From NCBI GenBank assembly GCA_045595605.1, contig JAZOAS010000149.1:5462-69461 (forward strand): 64,000 bases of DNA, in the 5' to 3' direction. Position 1 is the stretch's first letter. Every line of letters begins with the position of its first letter. The position numbers and the translations under genes were made by a program. The notes under the pieces are model-generated. The model searched no databases, was not told the DNA's origin, and saw only the letters and a program-made list of their open reading frames with translations. Source of the DNA: Eubacteriales bacterium (GTDB taxonomy: Bacteria > Bacillota > Clostridia > Oscillospirales > JAAYXM01). Shown here in pieces: positions 4,226 through 45,589 of the stretch.

Positions 4226-5326
4226 ATGAAGGAGAAAGCTCACATCTTTTATTTTGACTATCTGCGAATCCTCGCGGCGTTCTTTGTCGTCTTCATGCAT
4301 GTCGCATCAGGCCCAATGCGAGGCGAAATGACCGCAGGCTGGCACGGTTTAAACATCCTGACAAGCCTTTCGTTCACGGCAGTTCCACTCTTTTTTATGA
4401 TGTCGGGATATCTTCTCCTCTCAAGCGAAAAAACGGCAGATATTTCGCTTCTTTTCCGTCGCCGTCTGCCAAGACTTGTGCTTCCGCTTATATTCTGGAG
4501 CATTGTCTCGGTAATCTTCAAGCTTTATCTTGACGGTAGCCTTTCACTTATGTCCTTCTGGAGACATCTCCTCTCCGCACTCTCCGAGCCTGCGTGGGTT
4601 CATTTGTGGTATATGTATATGCTTATCGCATTCTACATTCTCTCGCCCTTCCTCCGCGCAATGGTTTCAAGCCTTACGAAAGGCGGGCATATACTTCTCT
4701 TTTCTCTCTGCGCACTCATCTCACTCCGCTCGATTCTCGCTGCAATTTTCCCTGCTGAATGGGACCGTTTCTTACAGATAGACATAATAAACAAGCTCGA
4801 GCTTTTCGGCGGGCACCTTGCGACCTTTATCCTCGGATATTACCTCGGCACATCCAAAAAGAAGGTTTCAAACCTTCTTCTCGCTTTGCTTTTCACTGCA
4901 GTGCTTCTCTCAATCATCCTCGGAACATATTTTATCTCATCTGCAAAGGGCGCATATCTTCAGGACTTCCAGCGCCAAAGCGCAGGCTTTGAGGTTGTTC
5001 TTGCAGCGAGCCTTTTCCTTCTTTTTAAGCAAAACACAAAAAGAGAGACCCCGTCGGGCATACTTTCCGAGCTTTGCGCACTCTCACTTCCCGTATATCT
5101 TATGCACAACCTGATTCTTTTCTATATAAACAAAATCGGATACGGCGCGGTTTCGTTTGTCGATACGCTTAAAATCAGCGTTCTTCTGTTTGGCGCGTGT
5201 ATTATCCTTTCAAAAACACTTACCACAATACCCTTTATCTCGTTTGCAAGCTCGGGAATCTCCTTCCGCGATGCAAACAAGTCCTGCAACTGGGTATATA
5301 CAGTTAAAAAGTTATTAAAGAAATAG
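4226..5326 (+). CDS. Acyltransferase family 3 integral membrane O-acyltransferase
   Basis: About 10 predicted TM helices and the N-terminal FDYLRILAAFFVVFMH motif typical of acyltransferase_3 (OatA/WecH-like). Confidence 0.8.
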   Translation: MKEKAHIFYFDYLRILAAFFVVFMHVASGPMRGEMTAGWHGLNILTSLSFTAVPLFFMMSGYLLLSSEKTADISLLFRRRLPRLVLPLIFWSIVSVIFKLYLDGSLSLMSFWRHLLSALSEPAWVHLWYMYMLIAFYILSPFLRAMVSSLTKGGHILLFSLCALISLRSILAAIFPAEWDRFLQIDIINKLELFGGHLATFILGYYLGTSKKKVSNLLLALLFTAVLLSIILGTYFISSAKGAYLQDFQRQSAGFEVVLAASLFLLFKQNTKRETPSGILSELCALSLPVYLMHNLILFYINKIGYGAVSFVDTLKISVLLFGACIILSKTLTTIPFISFASSGISFRDANKSCNWVYTVKKLLKK

Positions 5327-5357
5327 AAAAAGCCTTCCCTTCCGGGAAGGCTTTTTT
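5326..5357. terminator. Bidirectional rho-independent terminator
   Basis: A5-AGCCTTCCC-ttcc-GGGAAGGCT-T6: a 9-bp GC-rich stem flanked by an A-run and a T-run, between convergent genes. Confidence 0.75.
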
Positions 5358-5358
5358 A

Positions 5359-5466
5359 TCAGAATTGAAAACCGATTATAACGGCGAGGGTAAGTATTCC
5401 AAGCGCTATTACGCCCTCTAAAAGCTTTACCGAAACTTTTGCGCCTTTATAAATGTTGTTCTGCAT
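5359..5466 (-). CDS. Possible 35-aa single-TM micro-protein distal to the sugar ABC operon
   Basis: Hand translation MQNNIYKGAKVSVKLLEGVIALGILTLAVIIGFQF. The ATG is 4 nt after the mglC-like stop with AAGGAAG upstream, and it is followed by the 5326..5357 terminator. Below the ORF-track cutoff. Confidence 0.3.
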   Translation of the reverse strand: MQNNIYKGAKVSVKLLEGVIALGILTLAVIIGFQF

Positions 5467-5470
5467 AAAG

Positions 5471-6535
5471 TTACTTCCTTACAAGGTATTTTCTCATATC
5501 TATCGCGCAGGCGATAAGGATTATAAGTCCTTTGATTACATACTGCAGATTCTGGTTTACCGAGAGGAAGGTAAGACCTACAAAGATAATTCGCAGTAGC
5601 ACGACACCCATAATAACTCCGCGGATTTTTCCGATACCGCCGACAAACGAAACGCCGCCGATTACACACGCCGCAATCGCGTCGAGCTCGTAGTTAAGAC
5701 CGGTGGCGGCGGAGTTTGAGCCGATTCTCGCGCCCTCGATAAAGCCCGTCACGCCATACAGCGCACCCGCAAGCGTAAAGACTAAAATTATCGTCCGCGT
5801 TACATTTACGCCCGACACATGCGCAGCTTCAGAATTTGAGCCGACGGCAAACATATTCTTGCCAAAAGCCGTCTTGTTCCACACAAACCACATAATCACG
5901 GTTATAGCGAGCGAATACCACACGAAATTCGGTATCGCACTTCCGCCGATTTTGAGAAAGCTTCCGTTTATGAACTCCGTATAGCTCGAATCAAGCCCTG
6001 AGATTGACTGACCGTTGTTCGTTCCGAGCGTGAGGTACATAAGCAGTCCGCCGTAGATTATAAGCTGGGTGGCGAGCGTTACGATAAACGGGTGAAGGTT
6101 GAATTTCGCCGTACAGAAGCCGTTTACCGCGCCGAGAAGCGCGCCTATCGCGATTACGAGCAATATTACAACAAACACAGGAATCGTCGGAAGCGACGGG
6201 AACATCTTGTTCGCATACCCCGTAGCCTGCAATAGCGACGCCGCAACGCACGCGCACGCGCCGACTGCGCGACCTGCCGAAAGGTCAGTTCCCGTAAGTA
6301 TAATCGCGCCCGCAATTCCGAGCGCTATCGGCAGGTTTGCGGCAGAGAGCGAGATTATATTGACGATTGACCCGGGCGAGACGAAGCGCGGGCGGTAAAT
6401 TGCTATTGCGATTATCACTATTACAAGAAAAATGTAAAGGGCGTTATTTATGAGAAACTCGCGCCGTCTTCTCCGTCTTTCCCCCTGCGGCTCGTCTCCG
6501 AAATTCCCGAGCTTGAATTTTGATTTCTTTTCCAT
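5471..6535 (-). CDS. mglC: Sugar ABC transporter permease (MglC/RbsC family)
   Basis: Polytopic membrane protein with the branched-chain/ribose-type permease layout. Third gene of a binding-protein/ATPase/permease operon. Confidence 0.8.
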   Translation of the reverse strand: MEKKSKFKLGNFGDEPQGERRRRRREFLINNALYIFLVIVIIAIAIYRPRFVSPGSIVNIISLSAANLPIALGIAGAIILTGTDLSAGRAVGACACVAASLLQATGYANKMFPSLPTIPVFVVILLVIAIGALLGAVNGFCTAKFNLHPFIVTLATQLIIYGGLLMYLTLGTNNGQSISGLDSSYTEFINGSFLKIGGSAIPNFVWYSLAITVIMWFVWNKTAFGKNMFAVGSNSEAAHVSGVNVTRTIILVFTLAGALYGVTGFIEGARIGSNSAATGLNYELDAIAACVIGGVSFVGGIGKIRGVIMGVVLLRIIFVGLTFLSVNQNLQYVIKGLIILIACAIDMRKYLVRK

Positions 6536-21623: not shown

Positions 21624-23111
21624 TTATCTGTAATATAACTTTTTCGTCTGTCTTCTCGGCTCACAGGTGAGGTTGATACCGAGCTTTCGATACACATCGA
21701 GGTCAACCTGCGAGAGGATAACCGTTGAATGAGCTTCGCATTTTCTGAGCTCTGAGAGCTTTGAGGTTGCAAGCGCGGCAATCTCGTTCTGCGCCGCCGC
21801 AACGGTGAGCGCAATCAGCACCTCGTCGGAATGAAGACGCGGGTTATGGTTGCCTAAGATGCCGGTCTTGAGCGTCTGAATCGGCTCTATAACCTCGGGC
21901 GGAATGAGGTGGATTGAATCGTCGATATTTCCGAGCGCCTTGACGGCGTTGAGAAGCGCTGACGCTGACGGACCGAGGAGCTTTGTGTTCCTGCCGGTAA
22001 CGATTCTGCCGTCGGGAAGCTCTATCGCAATCGCCGGCTCTCCGTCGCTCTCCTCGCTCTTTGCAAGCGCCGCGCCGACAACCGCGCGGTCATCAGGCGT
22101 AATTCCCGCCTGCTTCATGAGGAGCTCGACCTTCGTAACAGCGGAGTCAGAGCCGCGACCAAGCTTCATATCGCACATTACATTGAAATATCTTCTTATA
22201 ATCTCTTCCTTTGAAGCGTTGCGGGTAGCCTCGTCGTCAACTATGCAGTAGCCCGCCATATTAACGCCCATATCCGTCGGAGAGTTGTACGGGCTCTTAC
22301 CGAGAATCTTCTCGAACATCGCGCGGAGCACCGGGAAAACCTCAACATCGCGGTTGTAGTTTACCGTAGTCTCACCGTAAGCCTCGAGGTGATACGGGTC
22401 AATCATATTTACATCGTCAAGGTCCGCCGTAGCCGCTTCATACGCGAGGTTTACGGGGTGTTTGAGCGGGATATTCCAAATAGGGAAGGTCTCAAACTTC
22501 GCATACCCTGCCGAAATACCTCTCATATATTCGTGGTAAAGCTGGGAAAGGCACGCCGCCATTTTACCGCTGCCGGGGCCCGGAGCCGTAACAACAACGA
22601 GCGGGCGGGTGGTTTCGATATAATCGTTCTTTCCAAAGCCCTCTTCGCTTACGATATGAGAGATATTTACGGGATAACCGTCGATTGAATAGTGGAGATA
22701 TACCTTCATACCGAGCGTTTCGAGCTTTCTCTTGAACGCAATCGCAGACGGCTGTTCGTTAAAGCGCGAGATACATACGCTTCCGACATAAAGCCCGACT
22801 GCGCGGAACGCATCTATAAGACGGAGAACATCGCTGTCATATGTAATACCGAGGTCGTTTCTGACCTTGTTCTTTTCGATATCGGTAGCGCTTATGACTA
22901 TAACGAGCTCTACATCGTCAGAAAGGGTTTTGAGCATCTGCAGCTTACTGTCCGGCTGGAAACCGGGAAGAACACGGGACGCGTGATAATCGTCGAAGAG
23001 CTTACCGCCGAATTCAAGATAGAGCTTACCGCCGAATTTTTTAATACGCTCGCGAATCTGCTCCGACTGACGCTTGATATACGCGTCATTATCAAATCCG
23101 AGTTGCCACAT
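21624..23111 (-). CDS. DUF1846 / UPF0371 family protein
   Basis: 495 aa. The N-terminus FDNDAYIKRQSEQIRERIKKFGGKLYLEFGGKLFDDYHASRVLPGF matches my memory of the UPF0371 family. Confidence 0.75.
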   Translation of the reverse strand: MWQLGFDNDAYIKRQSEQIRERIKKFGGKLYLEFGGKLFDDYHASRVLPGFQPDSKLQMLKTLSDDVELVIVISATDIEKNKVRNDLGITYDSDVLRLIDAFRAVGLYVGSVCISRFNEQPSAIAFKRKLETLGMKVYLHYSIDGYPVNISHIVSEEGFGKNDYIETTRPLVVVTAPGPGSGKMAACLSQLYHEYMRGISAGYAKFETFPIWNIPLKHPVNLAYEAATADLDDVNMIDPYHLEAYGETTVNYNRDVEVFPVLRAMFEKILGKSPYNSPTDMGVNMAGYCIVDDEATRNASKEEIIRRYFNVMCDMKLGRGSDSAVTKVELLMKQAGITPDDRAVVGAALAKSEESDGEPAIAIELPDGRIVTGRNTKLLGPSASALLNAVKALGNIDDSIHLIPPEVIEPIQTLKTGILGNHNPRLHSDEVLIALTVAAAQNEIAALATSKLSELRKCEAHSTVILSQVDLDVYRKLGINLTCEPRRQTKKLYYR

Positions 23112-23277
23112 TGCCTTTTTCCCCCTTTATTTTTATCTAACTTAATTATTTTATCATATAAACAATATTATTTCAACCTCGATTATTTTTCTGTTTTTGA
23201 TTGTGTATTGTATAGTTTGGCATAGTTATAACGGTTTGTTTTAATTATGTCATCCCAATTATCCCGATTTCCACCCC

Positions 23278-23322
23278 AAAAAGTTGTCAAGCACAAAATT
23301 AAATTTGTGATATACTATATAT
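23278..23322 (+). promoter_or_regulatory. Promoter-like module P1 (AAAAAGTTGTCA-21-TGaTATACT), paralogous to the dnaA upstream module
   Basis: It aligns with 27114..27160 with only a few mismatches and has an extended -10 TGATATACT. Confidence 0.5.
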
Positions 23323-23398
23323 GAATTGCACAAACAATACAAATATATTATAATGAAAGAAAACAAATACCTATTAGCTCAAATAGGAGGATGAAAAA

Positions 23399-23803
23399 AT
23401 GCAGGTTAAAATCATGAAAATTACAATAGTTGTATTACTTTTAGTTGTGCTGGTAATGGGCTGTTTGGCATATCTCCAATATAGTAATATGTTCATAATA
23501 GACGAAAATAGCTATTTTAGTGATTTCTATGTCAAAGGCGATAAAGCATACATAGAATGTGTAATGGTAATCAAAAGCCCACGAGATTGCGACATCCGTC
23601 TTCTTGGTACTTTCCCGGAAGACGAAGGAAAACTTTTAAAGTATCCCTCACTTTTTGCCTATGATACGGAAGGCGGAAGTGATACTTTTCATCTGGAACG
23701 CGGAAGAAACCGTTTCGAAGTAGTTTTCATCGGTGACTATGCCGGTACATATCAAAAACAAAACAAACTTCTGCCGGAAATAGAAATCATTACATTGAAT
23801 TAA
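23399..23803 (+). CDS. Hypothetical small signal-anchored protein (AT-rich orphan, ORF-A)
   Basis: GGAGG 8 nt upstream of the ATG, one N-terminal TM (ITIVVLLLVVLVMGCLAYL), no family recognised, visibly AT-rich relative to its neighbours. Confidence 0.55.
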   Translation: MQVKIMKITIVVLLLVVLVMGCLAYLQYSNMFIIDENSYFSDFYVKGDKAYIECVMVIKSPRDCDIRLLGTFPEDEGKLLKYPSLFAYDTEGGSDTFHLERGRNRFEVVFIGDYAGTYQKQNKLLPEIEIITLN

Positions 23804-23868
23804 AAACCTCGCTTCGCTTGTGATTTTATCCACTCACTGTTGATTAGCAGTGAGTGGTTTTTTATTTT
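23795..23868 (+). terminator. Terminator module T1 (paralogous to 26986..27062)
   Basis: CCACTCACTGTT-gatt-AGCAGTGAGTGG (23830..23857) plus TTTTTTATTTT. The similarity to T2 starts at the last two codons (LN*). Confidence 0.7.
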
Positions 23869-23916
23869 CACCTTGTTTTTGTCGGGGATGCCATCCCCTA
23901 CGCTATCTTTCTGCAT

Positions 23917-23949
23917 AAAAAAGAGCCCGACTGTGTCGGACTCTTTTTT
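23917..23949. terminator. Bidirectional terminator after jag
   Basis: A6-GAGCCCGAC-tgt-GTCGGACTC-T6, with one mismatch in the stem. Confidence 0.7.
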
Positions 23950-23950
23950 G

Positions 23951-24709
23951 TTATCTGTCTTCGCGTCTTCTGTAATTGCGGGCATCCGGACCTGTGTAGT
24001 TGATGATAACGCGGCGGTTCGGCTCAACGCCGACAGAAGATGTTGAGATATTCTCCATTCCCTGGAGAGCGACATGAACGATATGTCTCTCATAAGCGTT
24101 CATCGGCTCAAGAGCCTTGTTTCTCTTATACTTGAGAACCTGGCTTGCTGCACGACGAGCGAAACGGTCGAGAGATTCTGATCTCTTTGCGCGGTAGTTT
24201 TCTGCATCAAGAGTAATTCTCTTCTTATCAGAGCTTCCGCGGTTGATTACGAGGTTTGTGATGTGCTGGAGAGCGTCGAGAGTCTCACCGCGGCGACCGA
24301 TTATTCCGCCGAGGTTCGGGCCTACGATGTCGAGAGTTACAAAGCCGTCTTCGCCTGCCTTCTCTTCTACATGTGCATCGTCGCAGATGTATGAAAGAAC
24401 TTTGTTGAGGAACTCTGCAGCGTCAGAATCTGAAGCTGCAGAAGCCTTTGCGGGCGCTGCTTTCTTTTCCTTTTTCTCCTTCTTCTCGGGAACGGGAGCG
24501 GGTGCAACCTCTTCCTCTTCGTCGTCGCCGTCGAGGGAAAATTCCTTCATAAGAATTTTTGCAGGAGCTGCGCCGATTCCGAGAAAGCCTGATTTCGGGT
24601 TCTCAAGAACCTCAACAGTTACATCTTCTCTCTCAAGACCGAGTTCACGAAGGCCTTTTTCAATAGCCTCATCTATCGTTTTTCCTGTTACTTCAATTTT
24701 ACGCGCCAT
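23951..24709 (-). CDS. jag: Jag/KhpB RNA-binding protein (Jag_N, KH, R3H domains)
   Basis: N-terminus GKTIDEAIEKGLRELG, an acidic/lysine-rich linker, KH (GRRGETLDALQ) and R3H (ERHIVHVAL). Conserved position after yidC. Confidence 0.88.
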   Translation of the reverse strand: MARKIEVTGKTIDEAIEKGLRELGLEREDVTVEVLENPKSGFLGIGAAPAKILMKEFSLDGDDEEEEVAPAPVPEKKEKKEKKAAPAKASAASDSDAAEFLNKVLSYICDDAHVEEKAGEDGFVTLDIVGPNLGGIIGRRGETLDALQHITNLVINRGSSDKKRITLDAENYRAKRSESLDRFARRAASQVLKYKRNKALEPMNAYERHIVHVALQGMENISTSSVGVEPNRRVIINYTGPDARNYRRREDR

Positions 24710-24711
24710 TT

Positions 24712-25584
24712 CTATTTTTCTCCTTCTGAAGCCTTTTTCTCGGCTTTCTTCTTATAATATAAAGTAAGCAACGGCTCCTGAACTGCTGAAAGGATGTTGC
24801 TGATGATCCAGTAGAGACCGAGACCCGCGGGAACAACGAATGCGATATATACCGACATTGCCGGCATCATAACATTCATAAGTCCGTTTGTCTGCTTTGT
24901 CTGCTCATTAACCGGTGCACCCTGTGAGCGGCGCATAAGCCAGCCTGAGAACCAGGATGTGACACCCGAAAGAATCGGAATAATCCAGAGCGGTGTGATG
25001 TACTTGAAGTTCGGGATAGCCGCAAGGTCAATTCCGAGGAACTCAAAGTTTACACCGTTTAAGTTCGGAGCAATTTCAGTAAAGAGATTGCCGTAGTCCT
25101 TTACATAAGACGCAACGCCCATTTCAAGCATATATGCGCTCTTTGCGGCGGCGCCTGTGATTCCTTGTGTAACTCCGTTTGCGGTAAGAACCTCTGCCAT
25201 CTTCGCAATCTGGTCGGTAGTGATACCGAAGATGTAAGTAAGCGGCTGACGGACGACGGAATAAAGACCTATCATGATAGGAAGCGTTATGAGAAGCGGA
25301 AGGCATCCGCCGAACATCGAAACGCCCTCTTTTTTATAGAGCTTTGAAACTTCCATCGAATATTTTTCTTTGTCGTTCTTGTATCTTCTTTCAAGCTCCT
25401 TGAGCTTCGGCTGAAGCCTGTTCATCTCAAGCATGCTCTTCTTGCTCTTCATCTGGAACGGAAGGATGATGAGCTTTGAAAGAATGGTAAACAAGATAAT
25501 GGCAATGCCATAGTTATTTATGAGGTTGTAGCACCATTTTAGGAGAATTCCAAAAATGTCTGACAAAAAACCCATAGTTTTCAC
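24712..25584 (-). CDS. yidC: Membrane protein insertase YidC/SpoIIIJ
   Basis: Short Firmicute-type YidC with the conserved TM layout and a basic C-terminal tail KKKAEKKASEGEK. Confidence 0.92.
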   Translation of the reverse strand: MKTMGFLSDIFGILLKWCYNLINNYGIAIILFTILSKLIILPFQMKSKKSMLEMNRLQPKLKELERRYKNDKEKYSMEVSKLYKKEGVSMFGGCLPLLITLPIMIGLYSVVRQPLTYIFGITTDQIAKMAEVLTANGVTQGITGAAAKSAYMLEMGVASYVKDYGNLFTEIAPNLNGVNFEFLGIDLAAIPNFKYITPLWIIPILSGVTSWFSGWLMRRSQGAPVNEQTKQTNGLMNVMMPAMSVYIAFVVPAGLGLYWIISNILSAVQEPLLTLYYKKKAEKKASEGEK

Positions 25585-25605
25585 CTTCTTTTACTTTTTA
25601 GTTCC

Positions 25606-25818
25606 CTACGGAACAGGATCGTATCCGCTTTTCTTCGAAAACGGGTGACACCTGAGTATTCGCCTTACGGCAAGGTATCCGCCCTTTATCGCGCCGTATT
25701 TTTCAAGCGCCTCCAAAGCATACTGCGAGCAGGTCGGATAAAACCTGCAGCACGGCGCTTTGTACGGCGAAATACATTTCCGATAAAACTTCACGATTAA
25801 AATGAGAAGACTCTTCAT
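25606..25818 (-). CDS. yidD: Membrane protein insertion efficiency factor YidD
   Basis: 70 aa with [27 protein letters not shown], the hallmark YidD motif. Confidence 0.88.
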
Positions 25819-26162
25819 TTCTGCTCCTCCGAAAGAATGCCCAGACTTCCTGCCAATTTGAGCAGATTCTTCTCTATATCCGAATAGCCGACTTCGCTCG
25901 CGCGGACTCTTGCGACAACAATCATGTCAAAGCCGGGCGCAAAGAGGGCTTCGTTTCTCCGATACGCCTCGCGGATGCGACGGCGCACGCGATTTCGCAC
26001 AACTGCCTTGCCGACCTTTGTGCTGACCGTAATACCTAAACGGTTTGAGGCATTTTTATTTTTCCTTGCGTACATCGCAAGTACGGGAGTTACCGCGTTC
26101 TTTCCTTTGCGGTACAAAAAACGAAAATCCCTGTTGAGTTTGATAGACACCGTGTTTTTCAT
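25815..26162 (-). CDS. rnpA: Ribonuclease P protein component
   Basis: 115 aa, basic, with the RNR-like motif [11 protein letters not shown]. It sits between rpmH and yidD. Confidence 0.9.
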
Positions 26163-26285
26163 AAAAATTTCTCCAAATAAAAAGAAAAAGCCCGAAACGG
26201 ATAAATCCGAAGGCTACATGGGCTAAATCTTTTTGGGTGCGGACACTTCCGCAAAATTTTACGCTACCGCACCATTTCTCCTGAC

Positions 26286-26420
26286 TTAGTGAGTAAGCCT
26301 TGCTCTACCCTTTGCACGGCGAGCTGAAAGAACCTTGCGACCGTTGCGGGTAGCCATTCTCTTGCGGAAACCGTGAACCTTTGAGCGATGAAGCTTCTTC
26401 GGCTGATAAGTACGAACCAT
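26286..26420 (-). CDS. rpmH: 50S ribosomal protein L34
   Basis: Hand translation [44 protein letters not shown] (44 aa) with a GGAGGTG SD. The track ORF 26305..26493 is in the wrong frame. Confidence 0.95.
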
Positions 26421-26491
26421 TATTTTGCACCTCCATTACTTTATACTGAAAAGCCTTGTTTAGCACACTTTTCGATACAGTGTCATTAAAC

Positions 26492-26521
26492 ATTATAAAA
26501 TAAAGAGGGGCAAGATGTCAA
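26492..26521 (-). promoter_or_regulatory. rpmH operon promoter
   Basis: Minus strand TTGACA (26521..26516), 18-nt spacer, TATAAT (26497..26492), preceded by AAAAAAGTTGT. Confidence 0.6.
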
Positions 26522-26610
26522 CAACTTTTTTTCTCTTCACGGAAAAGTTGTGTTACCATTTGAAAATATACACTAAATATGGTAGAATAAAAAATAGGAG
26601 TTGGCTTGAT

Positions 26611-26994
26611 ATGAAATTTTTCCTGAAGCTCATATCCTTTATTCTTGTTATTATTTTCATAATATGGGGTATTCCAATGATAAAATGTGAATACCTTACA
26701 GCAAGGTATGGACATGAGTTTGATCTTGAAGAACCATATAAACAAAATAGTTTAATTCCCAAAACACAATCTTTTAAAGTTATGTCATACGGCAAAGAAT
26801 GGGCGGAGCTTTATTGTATAGGTGAAAATTATTCTATGGGTAACATATTGATCTTCAAAAAAACAGACGACAAGTGGACATATGACAGATGGGAAGAATG
26901 TGTCTGGACTGCACTTGGCGGCAGTGCTGATGGTGATATATGGCCATACTTCTGGCACAATACAAAATATGCGCTTATGTCCAAATTAAATTAA
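26611..26994 (+). CDS. Hypothetical small signal-anchored protein (AT-rich orphan, ORF-B) inserted between rpmH and dnaA
   Basis: TAGGAG 10 nt upstream of ATG 26611, one N-terminal TM (LKLISFILVIIFIIWGIPMI), Trp-rich ectodomain, no family recognised. The track start 26515 would overlap the rpmH promoter. Confidence 0.5.
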   Translation: MKFFLKLISFILVIIFIIWGIPMIKCEYLTARYGHEFDLEEPYKQNSLIPKTQSFKVMSYGKEWAELYCIGENYSMGNILIFKKTDDKWTYDRWEECVWTALGGSADGDIWPYFWHNTKYALMSKLN

Positions 26995-27062
26995 AAACCT
27001 CGCCTCTATGTGATTTTACCCACCCACTGCTACTTTAGCAGTGGGTGGGTTTCTTCTTTTTT
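26986..27062 (+). terminator. Terminator module T2 (paralogous to 23795..23868)
   Basis: CCCACCCACTGCT-acttt-AGCAGTGGGTGGG (27019..27049) plus a T-rich tail. Confidence 0.7.
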
Positions 27063-27087
27063 CGCCCTTTTTCCCCTTTGTGAAATG

Positions 27088-27128
27088 TGTCAAAAAGTTG
27101 TCAAAAAGTTGTCAAAAAGTTGTCAAAA
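27088..27128 (+). repeat. Tandem 11-bp repeat (TGTCAAAAAGT) x3 plus one partial copy, upstream of dnaA
   Basis: Read directly. Units at 27088, 27099, 27110 and 27121 (partial, TGTCAAAA). Confidence 0.95.
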
Positions 27129-27160
27129 TTTAATTAAAATTTGTGCTATACTATATATAT
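27114..27160 (+). promoter_or_regulatory. Promoter-like module P2 upstream of dnaA (AAAAAGTTGTCA-21-TGcTATACT)
   Basis: Extended -10 TGCTATACT. A second TGCTATAAT lies further downstream, near 27200. Paralogous to 23278..23322. Confidence 0.5.
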
Positions 27161-27242
27161 ATTATATGAAGAATTTGTGTTTACTTTTTGCACAATTTCT
27201 GCTATAATAAATCTATAATAATAAAGTGGGGGAAAATCATCT

Positions 27243-28550
27243 ATGAACAACGCAAGCGACATCTGGAATAGCGTTCTGCGTGTTATGAGAGAAGAACTCA
27301 AAATGAGTCAGACCACGCTCAATACCTGGTTTGACGACATCGAAGCGGCGGAGTTTTCAGACAACTCTCTGCTCCTTCTCACAACGGCTGAATTCAAAAA
27401 GGGCATAATCATTCAGAACTACTCCGAAATGATTAAAAATGCGCTCTTTGAAATCTTCTCCGTTCCGATTGAATTCAATCTTCTTACCAAGGACGAATAC
27501 GAGGCTCTGAACGGTCCTTCGAGAAAGACTACTCCGATTGATTACGAATACTCCTTTGAGAAGTTCGTCGTCGGTAACTCGAACAAGTTCGCTCACGCGG
27601 CAGCGAAAGCTGTTGCGTCTGATCCGGGCTCATCCTATAACCCGCTTCTCATCCACGGTGAGAGCGGTCTCGGAAAGACTCACCTGCTCTACGCTATTGC
27701 AGGCACTATCAAGAAAAATAACCCGGGCGCAAAAATTACATATGTAAAAAGTGAAGATTTTACAAACGAGCTTATTTCCGCTCTCCAGCGCCATAACCTT
27801 GAGGACTTCCGCGATAAGTACAGAAACTCGGACATCCTCTTGGTTGACGATATCCAGTTCATCGCGGGAAAGGACAGCACGCAGGAGGAATTTTTCCATA
27901 CCTTCAACGCGCTATATGAAGCTAAAAAGCAGATTGTCCTTACCTCAGACCGTCCGCCGAAGGAAATGGCAAAGCTTGAGGACAGACTCCGCACCCGTTT
28001 TGAGTGGGGTCTTCTTGCGGATATCGAACCGCCTGATTTTGAGACGAGAATGGCTATCATAAGCCTTAAGGCTAACCTTATCGGTCTTACGCTCACCGTA
28101 GAACAGAAAGAGCTTATTGCAAACAATGTCACGGCAAATGTCCGCCAGCTTGAAGGTGCTGTACATAAACTTTTAGCTTATCGCGACCTTCTTCAGGATG
28201 TTGACGGCATGCAGGCGGCAGAACGCGCCATACGCGATATTTTCGCCGAAAATCCGTGGATTAACCCGACACCCGAGTTCATTATCAAGGCTGTCGCAAA
28301 ATACTTTGAAATCAACCCTGAGGACATCACAGGCAAGGACCGCTCTCAGAAGATGGTCGAGCCGAGAAAGATTGCGATGTATATGGTCCGCGATATGACT
28401 CACCTCTCCTTCCCGAAGATGGGCGAGGTTTTCAATAAGGACCACTCAACAGTAAAGCACGCCATCGACTCTCTCGAGGAACAGCTTAAAGATGACTCGG
28501 CTCTCAGAGAAAAAATTCAGGATGTAAAAAGCTCTGTTCTGACACCGTGA
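27243..28550 (+). CDS. dnaA: Chromosomal replication initiator protein DnaA
   Basis: AAA+ GESGLGKTHLL, box VII, and C-terminal DNA-binding domain FNKDHSTVKHA. Confidence 0.98.
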   Translation: MNNASDIWNSVLRVMREELKMSQTTLNTWFDDIEAAEFSDNSLLLLTTAEFKKGIIIQNYSEMIKNALFEIFSVPIEFNLLTKDEYEALNGPSRKTTPIDYEYSFEKFVVGNSNKFAHAAAKAVASDPGSSYNPLLIHGESGLGKTHLLYAIAGTIKKNNPGAKITYVKSEDFTNELISALQRHNLEDFRDKYRNSDILLVDDIQFIAGKDSTQEEFFHTFNALYEAKKQIVLTSDRPPKEMAKLEDRLRTRFEWGLLADIEPPDFETRMAIISLKANLIGLTLTVEQKELIANNVTANVRQLEGAVHKLLAYRDLLQDVDGMQAAERAIRDIFAENPWINPTPEFIIKAVAKYFEINPEDITGKDRSQKMVEPRKIAMYMVRDMTHLSFPKMGEVFNKDHSTVKHAIDSLEEQLKDDSALREKIQDVKSSVLTP

Positions 28551-28785
28551 TATCCACAGTTTCCCTGTGGAATCAACAGGGATAAGTTTCGGATAACTTT
28601 TTGTGTTTTATTTTCTGTGGAAAGAGAAAAATTTATCAACAAAGTGCTGTTGATGTAATTTTCGCTTTATTTAAGTACTTAGACATACTTTTACACAGTT
28701 TCCACAGCCTATACTAATAATACTAAAAATATATTATATTCTTTTTTTATTAAAAATATTCCTCTTAAAGAAAGGAAAATTAAAA
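28550..28785. other. oriC core: DnaA-box cluster plus AT-rich unwinding element in the dnaA-dnaN spacer
   Basis: DnaA-box-like 9-mers versus TTATCCACA: ATATCCACA 28550..28558 (8/9) and TTATCAACA 28633..28641 (8/9). Weaker boxes are gTtTCCACA 28698..28706, TGTGGAAAG 28616..28624, TTCGGATAA 28588..28596 and TGTGGAATC 28566..28574. An almost pure A/T stretch follows at ~28711..28770. Confidence 0.7.
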
Positions 28786-29895
28786 ATGAAATTTGTATGC
28801 GAAAAATCTGTTCTCATGTCTGCCATCACAAGAACATCCTGGGCTGTTGCTTCAAAGAGCGCAGTTCCGGTTATGGAAGGTCTTCTTATTGATGCATCTT
28901 CTGAGCTTACTCTCACGGGTTATGACCTTTCAACCGGAATCAAAGTAACCGTTCCGGCAGAAATTCAGGAGACAGGAAAAATCGTTGTAAATGCGAGAAT
29001 TTTAAGCGATATTATCCGCCTTCTTCCGGATGAGCCGGTTACCTTCTCAACAGACGAGAATATGTTTGCAACGGTTGTTTGCAAAAATGTCCGTCACGAT
29101 GTTGTATGCATGTCAGCAAAAGATTTCCCCGCTCTTCCCGAGATTGAGAAGAAGTTTTTCCTCTCTCTTGCTCAGAGCGATTTGAAGCAGATGATTTCGC
29201 AGACGATTTTTGCTATAAGCGGTGATGAGTCAAAGCCGGTTCACACAGGCTCTTTGTTTGATGTTGACGGGGACAAGGTTACCGTCTGCTCGGTTGACGG
29301 CTTCCGCCTTTCTTACAGAAGCGCTGCCTGTGAAAATGAGAGCGAAGAGGTTAAATTCTCTTTCGTTGTTCCGGGCGGAACTTTAAAGGAAGTTGAAAAG
29401 CTCTGCGAGGAGTCTGACGCGAAGGCTTCAATCTGCGTAGGTCAGAAGCATATTATCTTCGAGCTTTCGGGATGTATGATTATTTCCCGTATCCTTGACG
29501 GCGATTTCCTTAACTACAAGAACGCTGTTCCGAAATCCTCAGCTTTCAAGGTCCGCGTTAACCGCCGCGACCTTATTTCCGCTATTGAGCGCGTTTCAAT
29601 TCTCATAAGCGAGAGAATTAAGAACCCGGTTCACTTAAACTTTACCGAAAAGACACTTCACATAAGCTGCCGCACGCCTATCGGCTCTTCAAAGGACGAA
29701 TGTGCGCTTTTAAATGCAGGCGATACTCTTGAAATCGGCTTTAACCACAAGTATCTTCTCGATGCTCTCCGCGCGTGTCCCAATGACGAGGTTGAGCTTG
29801 AGCTCAATACCCATGTCGCTCCGATTATAATTACTCCGCCTGAAAGTGACGAGTATTTACACCTCATTCTCCCCGTAAGACTCAAGGCTGAATAA
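28786..29895 (+). CDS. dnaN: DNA polymerase III beta sliding clamp
   Basis: 369 aa, MKFVCEKSVLMSAI..., conserved position after dnaA. Confidence 0.97.
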   Translation: MKFVCEKSVLMSAITRTSWAVASKSAVPVMEGLLIDASSELTLTGYDLSTGIKVTVPAEIQETGKIVVNARILSDIIRLLPDEPVTFSTDENMFATVVCKNVRHDVVCMSAKDFPALPEIEKKFFLSLAQSDLKQMISQTIFAISGDESKPVHTGSLFDVDGDKVTVCSVDGFRLSYRSAACENESEEVKFSFVVPGGTLKEVEKLCEESDAKASICVGQKHIIFELSGCMIISRILDGDFLNYKNAVPKSSAFKVRVNRRDLISAIERVSILISERIKNPVHLNFTEKTLHISCRTPIGSSKDECALLNAGDTLEIGFNHKYLLDALRACPNDEVELELNTHVAPIIITPPESDEYLHLILPVRLKAE

Positions 29896-44356: not shown

Positions 44357-45589
44357 ATGATGCTTAAAAAAATATTAATGATAAGTAATCATGATATCTG
44401 GGGCGATTTAAACACTTTCTCGCCGATGCTTAAAATATTGCAAAAACTTAGCGCGGAAGGTGTTCACGTCGATTTCGTTACAACAGAAAAAAAGAAGGAA
44501 TATGATGAAGCATCACAGAAGTTTGGTGAACCGGTAGAATATATAGCAGATAATATAATTATAGACAGAATAAAGGTTTTCTCGCCGAGAACATTGGCTT
44601 TTCTTTACAGAAACAAGTTCCTTAAAAGATTGTTTTCAAAATTAATGACAGAAGTTTTATTTCCGATAAAAGTATATAATAAATACAAAAACTGCAAAGG
44701 CTATGACATTGTTTATGGATATGAGATATACGGAGTAAAAGTTGCGAAAAAGTTATCCGAAAGGTATAATAAGCCACTTGTAACAAGGTTTCAGGGGAGC
44801 TTTATCAGGTCGTGGGAAGAGAAATTCGGGGTTAGATATTGCAAAAAAAAGTACAAGTTGCATTATCGGGCACTTGAAACAAAGGCAGATCTGATAATAA
44901 TGACAAACGATGGAACTGAAGGGGATAAAACACTCAAATCTCTTGAGAACGCAGAAAATATGAGGTTCTGGCGCAATGGATTTGACTTTTCCCCTCTGTC
45001 TGAAGATAAACCCACATTGCGAACAAGACTGAATTTGGAACAAGATGTGTTCTATACTGTGTCTGTTTGCAGACTGGCAAAGTGGAAACGATGTGAAAGG
45101 ATAGTGGAAGCATACAAAAATCTTGGGATTTCTTCGTCAAAGATCAAGCATCTTTTCGTTGGAGATGGCGAAGAACGGCAGCGACTTGAAGATTTGATTC
45201 GCTCATATGGACTCGGAGAGTATTTTGTTTTCTGTGGAAGTCAGCCACATGAGAAGGTTAAGGAATATTTGCAGGCTTCAGATGTGTTTCTCTCGTTCTT
45301 TGACAGCACAAATTCGGGAAATCCGTTGATTGAAGCAATTAAAATAAATCTCCCTATCATTACATATGATGTCGGAGATACAAATACTGTTATTACAAAC
45401 GGAGAGAATGGTATTTTGCTTAACGAACCGAACCCGGAGCTGATTGCAAAGACGATAGAAGAGCTCTTTTCAAATGAGCAATTGAGAGAAAAGCTTATCG
45501 AAGGAACAAAAGAATCTTCGAATATGTTTTATTCGTGGGATGTAAGAGTACAAAATGAGTTGGACGAATTGAAGAGATTGGTTCGGTAA
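44357..45589 (+). CDS. Glycosyltransferase family 4
   Basis: C-terminal GT4-like FVGDGEERQRLE...GNPLIEAIKINLPIITYDVGDT...GENGIL. Confidence 0.8.
   Translation: MMLKKILMISNHDIWGDLNTFSPMLKILQKLSAEGVHVDFVTTEKKKEYDEASQKFGEPVEYIADNIIIDRIKVFSPRTLAFLYRNKFLKRLFSKLMTEVLFPIKVYNKYKNCKGYDIVYGYEIYGVKVAKKLSERYNKPLVTRFQGSFIRSWEEKFGVRYCKKKYKLHYRALETKADLIIMTNDGTEGDKTLKSLENAENMRFWRNGFDFSPLSEDKPTLRTRLNLEQDVFYTVSVCRLAKWKRCERIVEAYKNLGISSSKIKHLFVGDGEERQRLEDLIRSYGLGEYFVFCGSQPHEKVKEYLQASDVFLSFFDSTNSGNPLIEAIKINLPIITYDVGDTNTVITNGENGILLNEPNPELIAKTIEELFSNEQLREKLIEGTKESSNMFYSWDVRVQNELDELKRLVR

Follow-up and report, generated by a model that had tools for sequence, protein, structure and literature searches.

The locus studied here raises the question of why two small AT-rich genes, ORF-A and ORF-B, stand on either side of the jag-rpmH operon and next to dnaA in the genome of an Eubacteriales bacterium (assembly GCA_045595605.1, contig JAZOAS010000149.1). 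We inspected 64 kb of this genome, called the window below, in which the gene order is a DUF1846 gene (-), ORF-A (+), jag-yidC-yidD-rnpA-rpmH (-), ORF-B (+), dnaA (+), dnaN and recF. An earlier note on this DNA had pointed out that the two open reading frames (ORFs) share a 3' element, T (copies T1 and T2), and that a 5' element, P, precedes both ORF-A (P1) and dnaA (P2). The window was compared with loci L001-L110, which come from related genomes and metagenome contigs (L083-L110 are IMG/VR viral contigs). We found that ORF-A and ORF-B are likely orphan immunity genes, remnants of a family of polymorphic toxin-immunity modules that is specific to this clade. The features of the region are collected in Table 1.

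Both ORFs were confirmed as they had been described. Their proteins show no relationship (BLASTP E 0.068), and both are AT-rich, with a GC content of 0.363 for ORF-A and 0.341 for ORF-B compared to 0.472 for jag-rpmH and 0.474 for dnaA. The N-terminal membrane anchor claimed for both was found in the AlphaFold models as an N-terminal helix (residues 2-29 of ORF-A and 2-36 of ORF-B). The statement that neither belongs to a recognised family holds in so far as Pfam and NCBIfam scans of both proteins gave zero matches, but it fails where kinship is concerned, as both can be placed as immunity genes of a polymorphic toxin-immunity family. The predicted structures had a pLDDT (predicted local distance difference test) of 84.8 for ORF-A and 81.5 for ORF-B. 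Foldseek searches against the PDB returned no significant match for either model; the best E value was 0.02 for ORF-A, which has a generic beta-sandwich fold, and 0.5 for ORF-B. Homologues are confined to a narrow set of metagenome-assembled genomes of animal-gut Oscillospiraceae, with 21 clusters for ORF-A and 11 clusters for ORF-B.

The role of ORF-A was predicted from the genes next to its homologues. In L001-L004, homologues with 66-90% identity are located 10 bp 3' of genes for type-1 toxins of 384-395 residues, and in L005 the toxin is truncated. The type-1 domain (residues 207-386) recurs on proteins with RHS_repeat/TEN_YD-shell, WXG100 and PF13699 (DUF4157), and it shares 52% identity with the C-terminus of a protein named RHS by NCBI. 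One such case is L077, where a 571-residue RHS protein ends in a type-1 domain and is followed by a gene of 135 codons, whose product shares 30% identity with ORF-A over 103 residues (E 7e-14). Toxin-immunity pairs are typically recognised by a toxin domain and a downstream gene that travel together across scaffolds (PMC3482391, PMC3150448). Because the type-1 domain and its downstream gene travel together in this way across delivery scaffolds, we predict with high confidence that ORF-A is the cognate immunity protein of the type-1 toxin domain.

The ~390-residue proteins themselves have the architecture that defines polymorphic toxins. Two of them from a single genome (L002_387 and L002_402) are 61% identical in residues 1-204 and have unrelated C-termini. 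Likewise, L011_401 and L007_163 share 86% identity over 78 N-terminal residues, and their C-termini differ. The C-terminus of L007_163 matches the Pfam family Tox-WTIP with 46.3 bits (cut-off 25), a family described among polymorphic toxins (PMC3482391). A sequence search of the PDB with both toxin types gave zero matches.

The window itself contains no such gene, since tblastn for the toxin across the 64 kb detected none. What it contains is a scar between P1 and ORF-A. In the left part of the scar (23355-23368), 13 of 14 positions agree with L001 4789-4802, and the toxin start codon ATG has become ATA. The right part holds the final codons and the stop of the toxin, GCTCAAATAG, at 23377-23385. 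Over the last toxin codons and the ribosome-binding site of ORF-A (23377-23393), the window is identical to L002 5981-5997 at 17 of 17 positions. On the other side, the proximal promoter of L002 (4780-4814) and window 23322-23356 are identical at 32 of 35 positions. Two pieces of L002 have no counterpart in between: the sequence of the 387-residue toxin (4827-5980), absent from the window, and the ~85-nt leader between the module promoters (4699-4779), missing at P1. A toxin gene of ~1.15 kb has thus been deleted between P1 and ORF-A, and it is because of this deletion that ORF-A now lies directly behind P1. The ORF-A reading frame is intact, and AGGAGG, two promoter-like sites and a terminator are present as sequence features. 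Loss of the toxin with the immunity gene kept was also found elsewhere: the last 24 toxin codons are left in L078 and the last 61 in L079, and in L010 the toxin is split in two.

Table 1. Features of the ORF-A/ORF-B region (positions in the window).
Feature	Position	Strand	Description
ORF-A	23399..23803	+	134 residues; membrane-anchored beta-sandwich; predicted to confer immunity to the C-terminal domain of 'type 1' toxins
Insertion A	23160..23945	+	ORF-A cassette with AT-rich flanks, between the DUF1846 gene and jag; GC 0.347
P1, distal promoter	23277..23322	+	one AAAAAGTTGTCA unit (23278-23290), 21-nt spacer, extended -10 TGATATACT (TATACT 23311-23316)
P1, proximal promoter	23326..23354	+	TTGCAC-17-TATAAT; homologous to the proximal promoter of toxin modules; also matched by promoter scan
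Scar of deleted toxin gene	23355..23385	+	remnant of toxin 5' untranslated region and start, then last codons and stop
T1	23794..23868	+	last two codons and stop, conserved 5' motif (23802-23829), 12-bp hairpin (23830-23857), T-run
ORF-B	26611..26994	+	127 residues; membrane-anchored; homologues close toxin-immunity operons
Insertion B	26585..27046	+	ORF-B and T2 cassette at the rpmH/dnaA junction; GC 0.355; 462 bp
Likely ORF-B promoter	26560..26588	+	TTGAAA-17-TGgTAGAAT; mostly resident rpmH-proximal sequence in common with L012; unrelated to P
T2	26985..27062	+	hairpin (27018-27050) and T-run
P2, distal dnaA promoter	27083..27160	+	one degenerate and three exact AAAAAGTTGTC units (27083-27126), 21-nt spacer, TGCTATACT (TATACT 27147-27152)
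Proximal dnaA promoter	27180..27208	+	TTTACT-17-TGCTATAAT; kept in every relative examined
jag-yidC-yidD-rnpA-rpmH operon	23951..26420	-	resident genes between both cassettes
rpmH promoter	26492..26521	-	TTGACA-18-TATAAT, 12/12; kept in relatives
dnaA	27243..28550	+	

For ORF-B, the prediction comes from gene order. Operons in L006, L010 and L011 consist of a ~390-residue gene, a gene of 141-147 residues and the ORF-B homologue as the last gene, and in L007 and L080 the homologue is again the last gene of related arrays. ORF-B is probably a second, orphan immunity-type gene, assigned on position alone. A profile search with its family gave 445 cluster representatives, which are unannotated, and a Pfam search of ten distant relatives of ORF-B found zero domains. 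The whole cassette of ORF-B and T2, 470 bp long, was found at another place: window 26592-27061 is 86.6% identical to L006 5982-6452, and the L006 copy lies at a different, PrmA-linked chromosomal locus.

The earlier note had placed the start of the 3' homology at the last two codons, and this proved correct (TTR AAT TAA). Among ORF-B homologues, those with T have ...LMSKLN or ...RRMN as their last residues, and those with another 3' end stop at ...KYR. Since the C-termini differ with the 3' end and the T copies do not group by the gene before them, this start of homology is best read as a recombination junction inside the last codons. In one homologue of 147 residues (P0023), a C-terminal extension, NESESFFMNFKVEKDKVYIE, resembles the start of the soluble domain of ORF-A, which suggests that on that contig an ORF-B gene lies directly before, or is fused with, an ORF-A-type gene.

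Comparison of origin regions showed that both genes are insertions relative to related genomes, as had been suspected. L015 and L025 share the DUF1846 and jag neighbours; their homology to the window breaks at 23159-23161 and returns at 23946-23951, and L015 has only 70 bp at this position. At the other side, collinearity of the window with L012 is lost after 26584 and regained at 27047. In most relatives, the spacer between rpmH and dnaA is 245-305 bp long and holds no gene. In L012, the closest species (DnaA 94% identical), a module of 1864 bp stands in place of ORF-B-T2, with the order P, leader, toxin (384 residues), immunity gene (146 residues) and terminator. L017 has a different module there, consisting of a 157-residue toxin, a 165-residue gene and a gene for an M16-like peptidase, and the metagenome contig L075 has the same arrangement as the window (ORF-B-T-P-dnaA). 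The rpmH/dnaA junction appears to be a hot spot for modules in this clade, because L012, L017, L075 and the window carry inserts where most relatives have none. The module of L012 is bordered on both sides by P copies in direct orientation, and L013 has one P there, a pattern consistent with insertion or loss through recombination of the P copies. The contexts recovered for ORF-A and ORF-B homologues in relatives were several unrelated chromosomal sites, none of them at the origin.

Several other genes accompany the modules. In L001 (6985-11231), an ORF-A-type module adjoins genes for a large serine recombinase, a ParB-like protein and a relaxase, and this region appears to be an integrative mobilisable or conjugative element. 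A gene for an M16-family (insulinase-like) peptidase is found with modules in two distant relatives, L007 (739-1974) and L017 (3440-4639), along with DUF4176 fragments in L007; these products may be partners in toxin processing or export. Lipoproteins of 312-326 residues with an LRP1-like beta-propeller domain are encoded in L079 (247-3026) and L080 (2997-3935), between toxin genes or their remnants and homologues of ORF-A or ORF-B, and are probably another immunity type in the same arrays.

We then considered the shared 3' element. T1 (23794-23868) and T2 (26985-27060) are paralogous, as the earlier note had claimed, with 80.5% identity over 77 nt (E 1.7e-12 in the window). The compensatory changes reported in the stem are correct (T:A to C:G and U.G to C:G), and the T2 orthologue in L075, 92% identical, adds another pair (T:A to G:C). 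When seven T copies of the window and its relatives were compared, 99% of stem cells paired, and in 5 of 14 pairs both sides had changed; none of 500 shuffles reached the observed level, and slid registers pair at 31-45%. The stem is thus kept through compensatory change, and the claim that the hairpin is under selection stands. The hairpins have energies of -22.4 kcal/mol for T1 (z -5.2) and -31.1 kcal/mol for T2 (z -7.8), each with a T-run behind it, and a terminator scan matched both. In L002, L003/L004, L006, L075 and L078, T is located downstream of ORF-A or ORF-B homologues, behind the last immunity gene. T is therefore predicted to be the terminator of the module, of an ordinary but well-maintained intrinsic type. 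The copies do not follow the gene before them: T1 is nearer to the T of ORF-A homologues elsewhere (86% to L078) than to T2 (80.5%), and the T of L006, behind an ORF-B-type gene, is nearer to ORF-A-type copies than to T2. Rfam searches gave nothing relevant in window 22900-29000 (E <= 1) or in L002, L012, L013 and L017 (E <= 0.1).

A DnaA box had also been noted in T1. The sequence TTATCCACT is present at 23826-23834, but it is a single match at 8 of 9 positions, with only 7 of 9 in T2, and no cluster of consensus DnaA boxes is kept between the T copies. It overlaps the conserved CCAC at the start of the stem. Matches with one mismatch number 22 in the window against 10.9 expected, and a genuine cluster of DnaA boxes is found 3' of dnaA at 28550-28700. 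The box in T1 is probably a chance match.

T and P might be no more than generic repeats dispersed over the genome, either REP-like (repetitive extragenic palindromic) or a stereotyped promoter-terminator pair, and their place beside these ORFs would then be uninformative. Hairpin terminators are common, and the genome could be inspected over 64 kb. Within this length, however, T and P occur in two copies each with no third, all beside cassette genes or dnaA, and every copy found in relatives belongs to a module, to dnaA or, once, to a different gene. Apart from L075, relatives lack T in their dnaA loci. A T pattern searched in a metagenome collection gave one true locus, the ORF-B-T-P-dnaA arrangement of L075, and one chance match, and in viral contigs it gave zero matches. 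We consider the generic-repeat explanation very improbable, in agreement with the earlier note.

The paralogy of P1 and P2 was likewise supported, with 75.8% identity over 62 nt (23277-23338 and 27113-27174; E 2.5e-8 in the window). P is built on an 11-bp unit, AAAAAGTTGTC, of which P1 carries one. This unit is found in the window in P1 and P2 only, and in ~200 kb of the dnaA loci of relatives it is found in the rpmH-dnaA spacer only. A supposed third copy upstream of ORF-B ('P0') was rejected as it is not paralogous to P1 or P2, and weak matches to the repeat at 44737 and 51521 look like chance. At toxin modules the layout of P is fixed: one or two AAAAGTTGTCA units, 21 nt and TGnTATAMT. P is located upstream of toxin genes in L001, L002 (two copies), L003/L004, L012 and L078, and it also precedes one unrelated gene, of a third type, in L002. 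A distal dnaA promoter of the P type is present in the window, L012, L013, L025 and L075, is degenerate in L029, L014 and L017, and is absent in L015, L016, L020 and L030.

P1 shares 92% identity with two foreign copies, the promoter before the toxin gene of L004 (4658-4706) and the distal dnaA promoter of L012 (3660-3710), and only 76% with P2. Because P1 is so close to foreign copies and more distant from P2 of its own genome, the P of modules and the distal dnaA promoter appear to be paralogues that still exchange sequence. We favour the view that the distal P is native to dnaA and was copied by the modules, because the distal promoter spans species with 74-94% DnaA identity.

These data bear on the origin proposed in the earlier note, namely local copying, around the origin, of cassettes with the dnaA promoter and a terminator upstream of it, or recruitment of the small genes to dnaA-type control, by which they would be expressed together with dnaA. 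The cassette pattern P-ORF-T is a real layout, and P is homologous to the dnaA promoter, but P and T are better described as the promoter and terminator of a toxin module. The homology of P1 and P2 would be expected from a local duplication, P2 is a real dnaA promoter conserved in the clade, and the rarity of the AAAAAGTTGTC unit makes a shared regulator conceivable; the third gene type of L002 also carries P. However, in other genomes these gene families have P and T around them at loci away from the origin. P1 is nearer to foreign P copies than to P2, and T1 is nearer to the T of L078 than to T2. T is also lacking from the dnaA loci of relatives, apart from L075. Moreover, ORF-B has no P and has a promoter of its own that is unrelated to it, and ORF-A stands beside P1 only through the toxin deletion. 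A duplication around the origin is accordingly unlikely, and the two genes look like immunity genes of toxin modules instead of orphans recruited to dnaA control.

In relatives, modules with P continue into a structured leader of ~85 nt and a second promoter, TTGCAA-17-TATAAT. The leader was located in L012 (1818-1898), L002 (4699-4782 and 7064-7150), L001 (4672-4752), L004 (4702-4785), L006 (4230-4315) and L078 (2714-2796), and it is missing at P1 of the window. Of the 27 pairs in its consensus fold, 4 show compensatory changes, and an invariant loop, UUGUGCGCG, could form a pseudoknot with GUGUGCGCAG at the 3' side. Because no Rfam family matches, we regard the leader as a candidate new cis-regulatory RNA. 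At dnaA, some relatives have a variable insert of 50-120 nt between the distal P-type and the proximal promoter; it is unrelated between species (L013 1428-1540, L017 4805-4925, L025 4878-4925), and the one in L013 has long inverted repeats.

The P repeat was also found in phages. The unit AAAGTTGTCA recurs in (pro)phage contigs L083-L110 (e.g. L100 10290-10600, L087 13210-13510 and L093 3200-3450). The exact two-unit 21-mer was found in 28 IMG/VR contigs, compared to 1 match for a TTGACA variant and 0 for a perfect Spo0A-box variant. In at least seven unrelated low-GC prophage contigs, units in both orientations lie around a tRNA or tRNA fragment, past the 3' end of a tyrosine integrase gene, an arrangement that looks like arm-type sites in attP. 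In ~15 related contigs, two units are located in the stretch from a sigma-region-4-like gene to terS, 23 nt ahead of TGGTATAAT, in the layout of P. A Spo0A-box reading of the repeat is unlikely, as the unit has TGTCAAA and not TGTCGAA and a tandem of perfect boxes is absent from viral contigs. We found no publication containing the 17-mer repeat. Carriage of the modules by phages was rejected, as viral contigs have no relatives of ORF-A or of the toxin.

The prophage arrangement raises the alternative that P and T are recombination sites, with the AAAAAGTTGTC repeats as arm-type sites of a tyrosine integrase and integrase-less cassettes captured in trans beside dnaA, in the manner of cis-mobilisable elements or integron cassettes. 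It would account for the 28 viral contigs with the two-unit 21-mer, against 1 and 0 for the control variants, and for the at least seven unrelated prophage contigs that have a tRNA-derived core just past a tyrosine integrase gene, with units of either orientation on its flanks. The module of L012 between direct P copies, the single P of L013, and T2 abutting P2 in the window agree with it as well; yet homologous recombination between P copies explains L012 equally, and modules at other loci carry one P only. Searches for an integrase of the prophage type in the window and in the fetched bacterial loci found none. The bacterial units are tandem, in one orientation and a fixed 21 nt before an extended -10, which is promoter-like, and one phage group has the same promoter-like layout upstream of terS, far from any integrase. 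The modules are also absent from viral contigs. We therefore consider the recombination-site explanation quite improbable.

As to what might bind the repeat, we take the candidates to be an integrase arm domain, a regulator of the OmpR/PhoB/WalR type, an IHF-like protein or a phased A-tract bend. For the OmpR/PhoB/WalR type, the feature we presume relevant is TGTCA at an 11-bp period replacing the -35. A more speculative and rather doubtful idea is that AAAAAGTTGTC is bound by a dedicated protein that also acts at prophage att sites and terS, making dnaA and the modules a regulon or the repeat an att-like dock. If the former were true, replication initiation would be linked to interbacterial warfare; if the latter, the rpmH/dnaA junction would be a site-specific dock for integrase-less toxin cassettes.

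Taken together, we propose the following explanation, in which ORF-A and ORF-B are orphan immunity genes of the toxin-immunity module family. Homologies, synteny, boundaries and covariation were observed directly. A full module would consist of the distal P (one to four AAAAAGTTGTC units, 21 nt and TGnTATAMT), the ~85-nt structured leader, the proximal promoter, a ~390-residue toxin, one or more immunity genes and T. In the toxin, the N-terminal half would be conserved and the C-terminal toxin domain exchangeable, and the immunity genes, at least one per module, would encode small membrane-anchored proteins. Modules would move among chromosomal sites and swap parts by recombination via their conserved ends, the left being P with the 5' half of the toxin gene and the right being T, from a few codons before the stop. 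In the source genome, one module would have landed between the DUF1846 gene and jag, followed by a clean deletion of the toxin gene. The product would be P1-ORF-A-T1, with promoters, ribosome-binding site and terminator still present. The rpmH/dnaA junction, a recurrent landing site, would keep only the terminal ORF-B-T2 cassette. P2 would be the clade's own distal dnaA promoter, and P1 and P2 would be similar because the module promoter is a paralogue of P2 with ongoing sequence exchange. The anchored, outward-facing immunity proteins could then protect the cell from toxins of relatives that still carry modules.

Several points weigh against this explanation. Neither predicted fold matches any solved immunity protein, and the N-terminal half of the toxin has no recognised secretion or trafficking domain in Pfam or NCBIfam. 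ORF-B homologues are never directly behind a toxin gene (L006, L007, L010, L011 and L080). A conserved motif of 28 nt on the 5' side of the T hairpin is left without a role in the proposed account. The cognate toxin could sit outside the visible 64 kb, in which case the genes would not be true orphans, and the copying of P could have run in the reverse direction, from modules to dnaA. Toxicity, neutralisation and expression, like that direction of copying, are inferred.

Three observations concern the resident sequence around the cassettes. Between T1 and the jag stop (23917-23950), a second hairpin, GAGCCCGACTGTGTCGGACTC, has A-runs on one side and T-runs on the other and is likely a bidirectional terminator serving jag; Rfam gave only a sub-threshold Thr_leader match there. 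At the rpmH promoter (26492-26540, - strand), AAAAAAAGTTGTTGACA precedes TTGACA and resembles the P unit AAAAAGTTGTCA on the other strand of the spacer. The dnaA-dnaN spacer (28551-28785) has a GC content of ~0.29 and several DnaA-box-like sequences (ATATCCACA at 28550, TTATCAACA at 28633, and TGTGGAA/TTCCACA motifs), and is likely oriC.

With this explanation, two 'orphan' genes become interpretable as probable relics of interbacterial conflict in uncultured animal-gut Oscillospiraceae, and a previously undescribed family of predicted stand-alone toxins can be defined together with its promoter, leader RNA and terminator. The rpmH/dnaA junction, among the most conserved gene junctions of bacteria, would be a recurrent landing pad in this clade. 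The P element common to dnaA and toxin modules, with its repeat in prophage att regions, also offers a lead to a DNA-binding factor.

The kind of system is already known, namely polymorphic toxins with orphan immunity genes. Orphan toxin and immunity cassettes have been described for Rhs and as orphan modules of CdiA-CT/CdiI (PMC3482391, PMC3150448, PMC3967940). The modules studied here resemble them in the conserved N-terminal part with recombining C-terminal domains, each with its own downstream immunity gene, a pairing found across scaffolds for ORF-A. Further likenesses are the 3' immunity arrays, a domain in common with RHS and WXG100 proteins, and recombination via conserved flanks. Unlike Rhs and CdiA-CT, the toxins here are short (~390 residues) and stand-alone, with their own double promoter and structured leader; their N-terminal half matches no library, and a main rhs or cdiA gene is lacking upstream. 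The modules are also dispersed, lie repeatedly at rpmH/dnaA, and have a promoter paralogous to that of dnaA.

Orphan immunity genes kept without their cognate effector are known for Rhs immunity in Serratia (PMC10539506) and for Bacteroidales (PMC12247911), and are thought to protect against non-self toxins (PMC10539506). The window shows the same combination of an intact gene with expression signals and an absent toxin gene, and protection against non-self toxins would be the corresponding role. In contrast to those cases, the host is of the Gram-positive type (Oscillospiraceae) and no type VI secretion system is involved. The genes are singletons beside essential operons and not part of an immunity island, and the loss of the toxin is visible as a scar.

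A third comparison is with integron cassettes and cis-mobilisable elements. Like integron cassettes, the units studied here combine unrelated small ORFs with a common hairpin-forming 3' element and occur as modular units at varied sites. They differ in having their own promoters and no adjacent integrase, and T, with its T-run, behaves as a terminator; attC-type R''/R' boxes were neither seen nor searched for. What is new is the family itself, its regulatory parts and its repeated occupation of the rpmH/dnaA junction.

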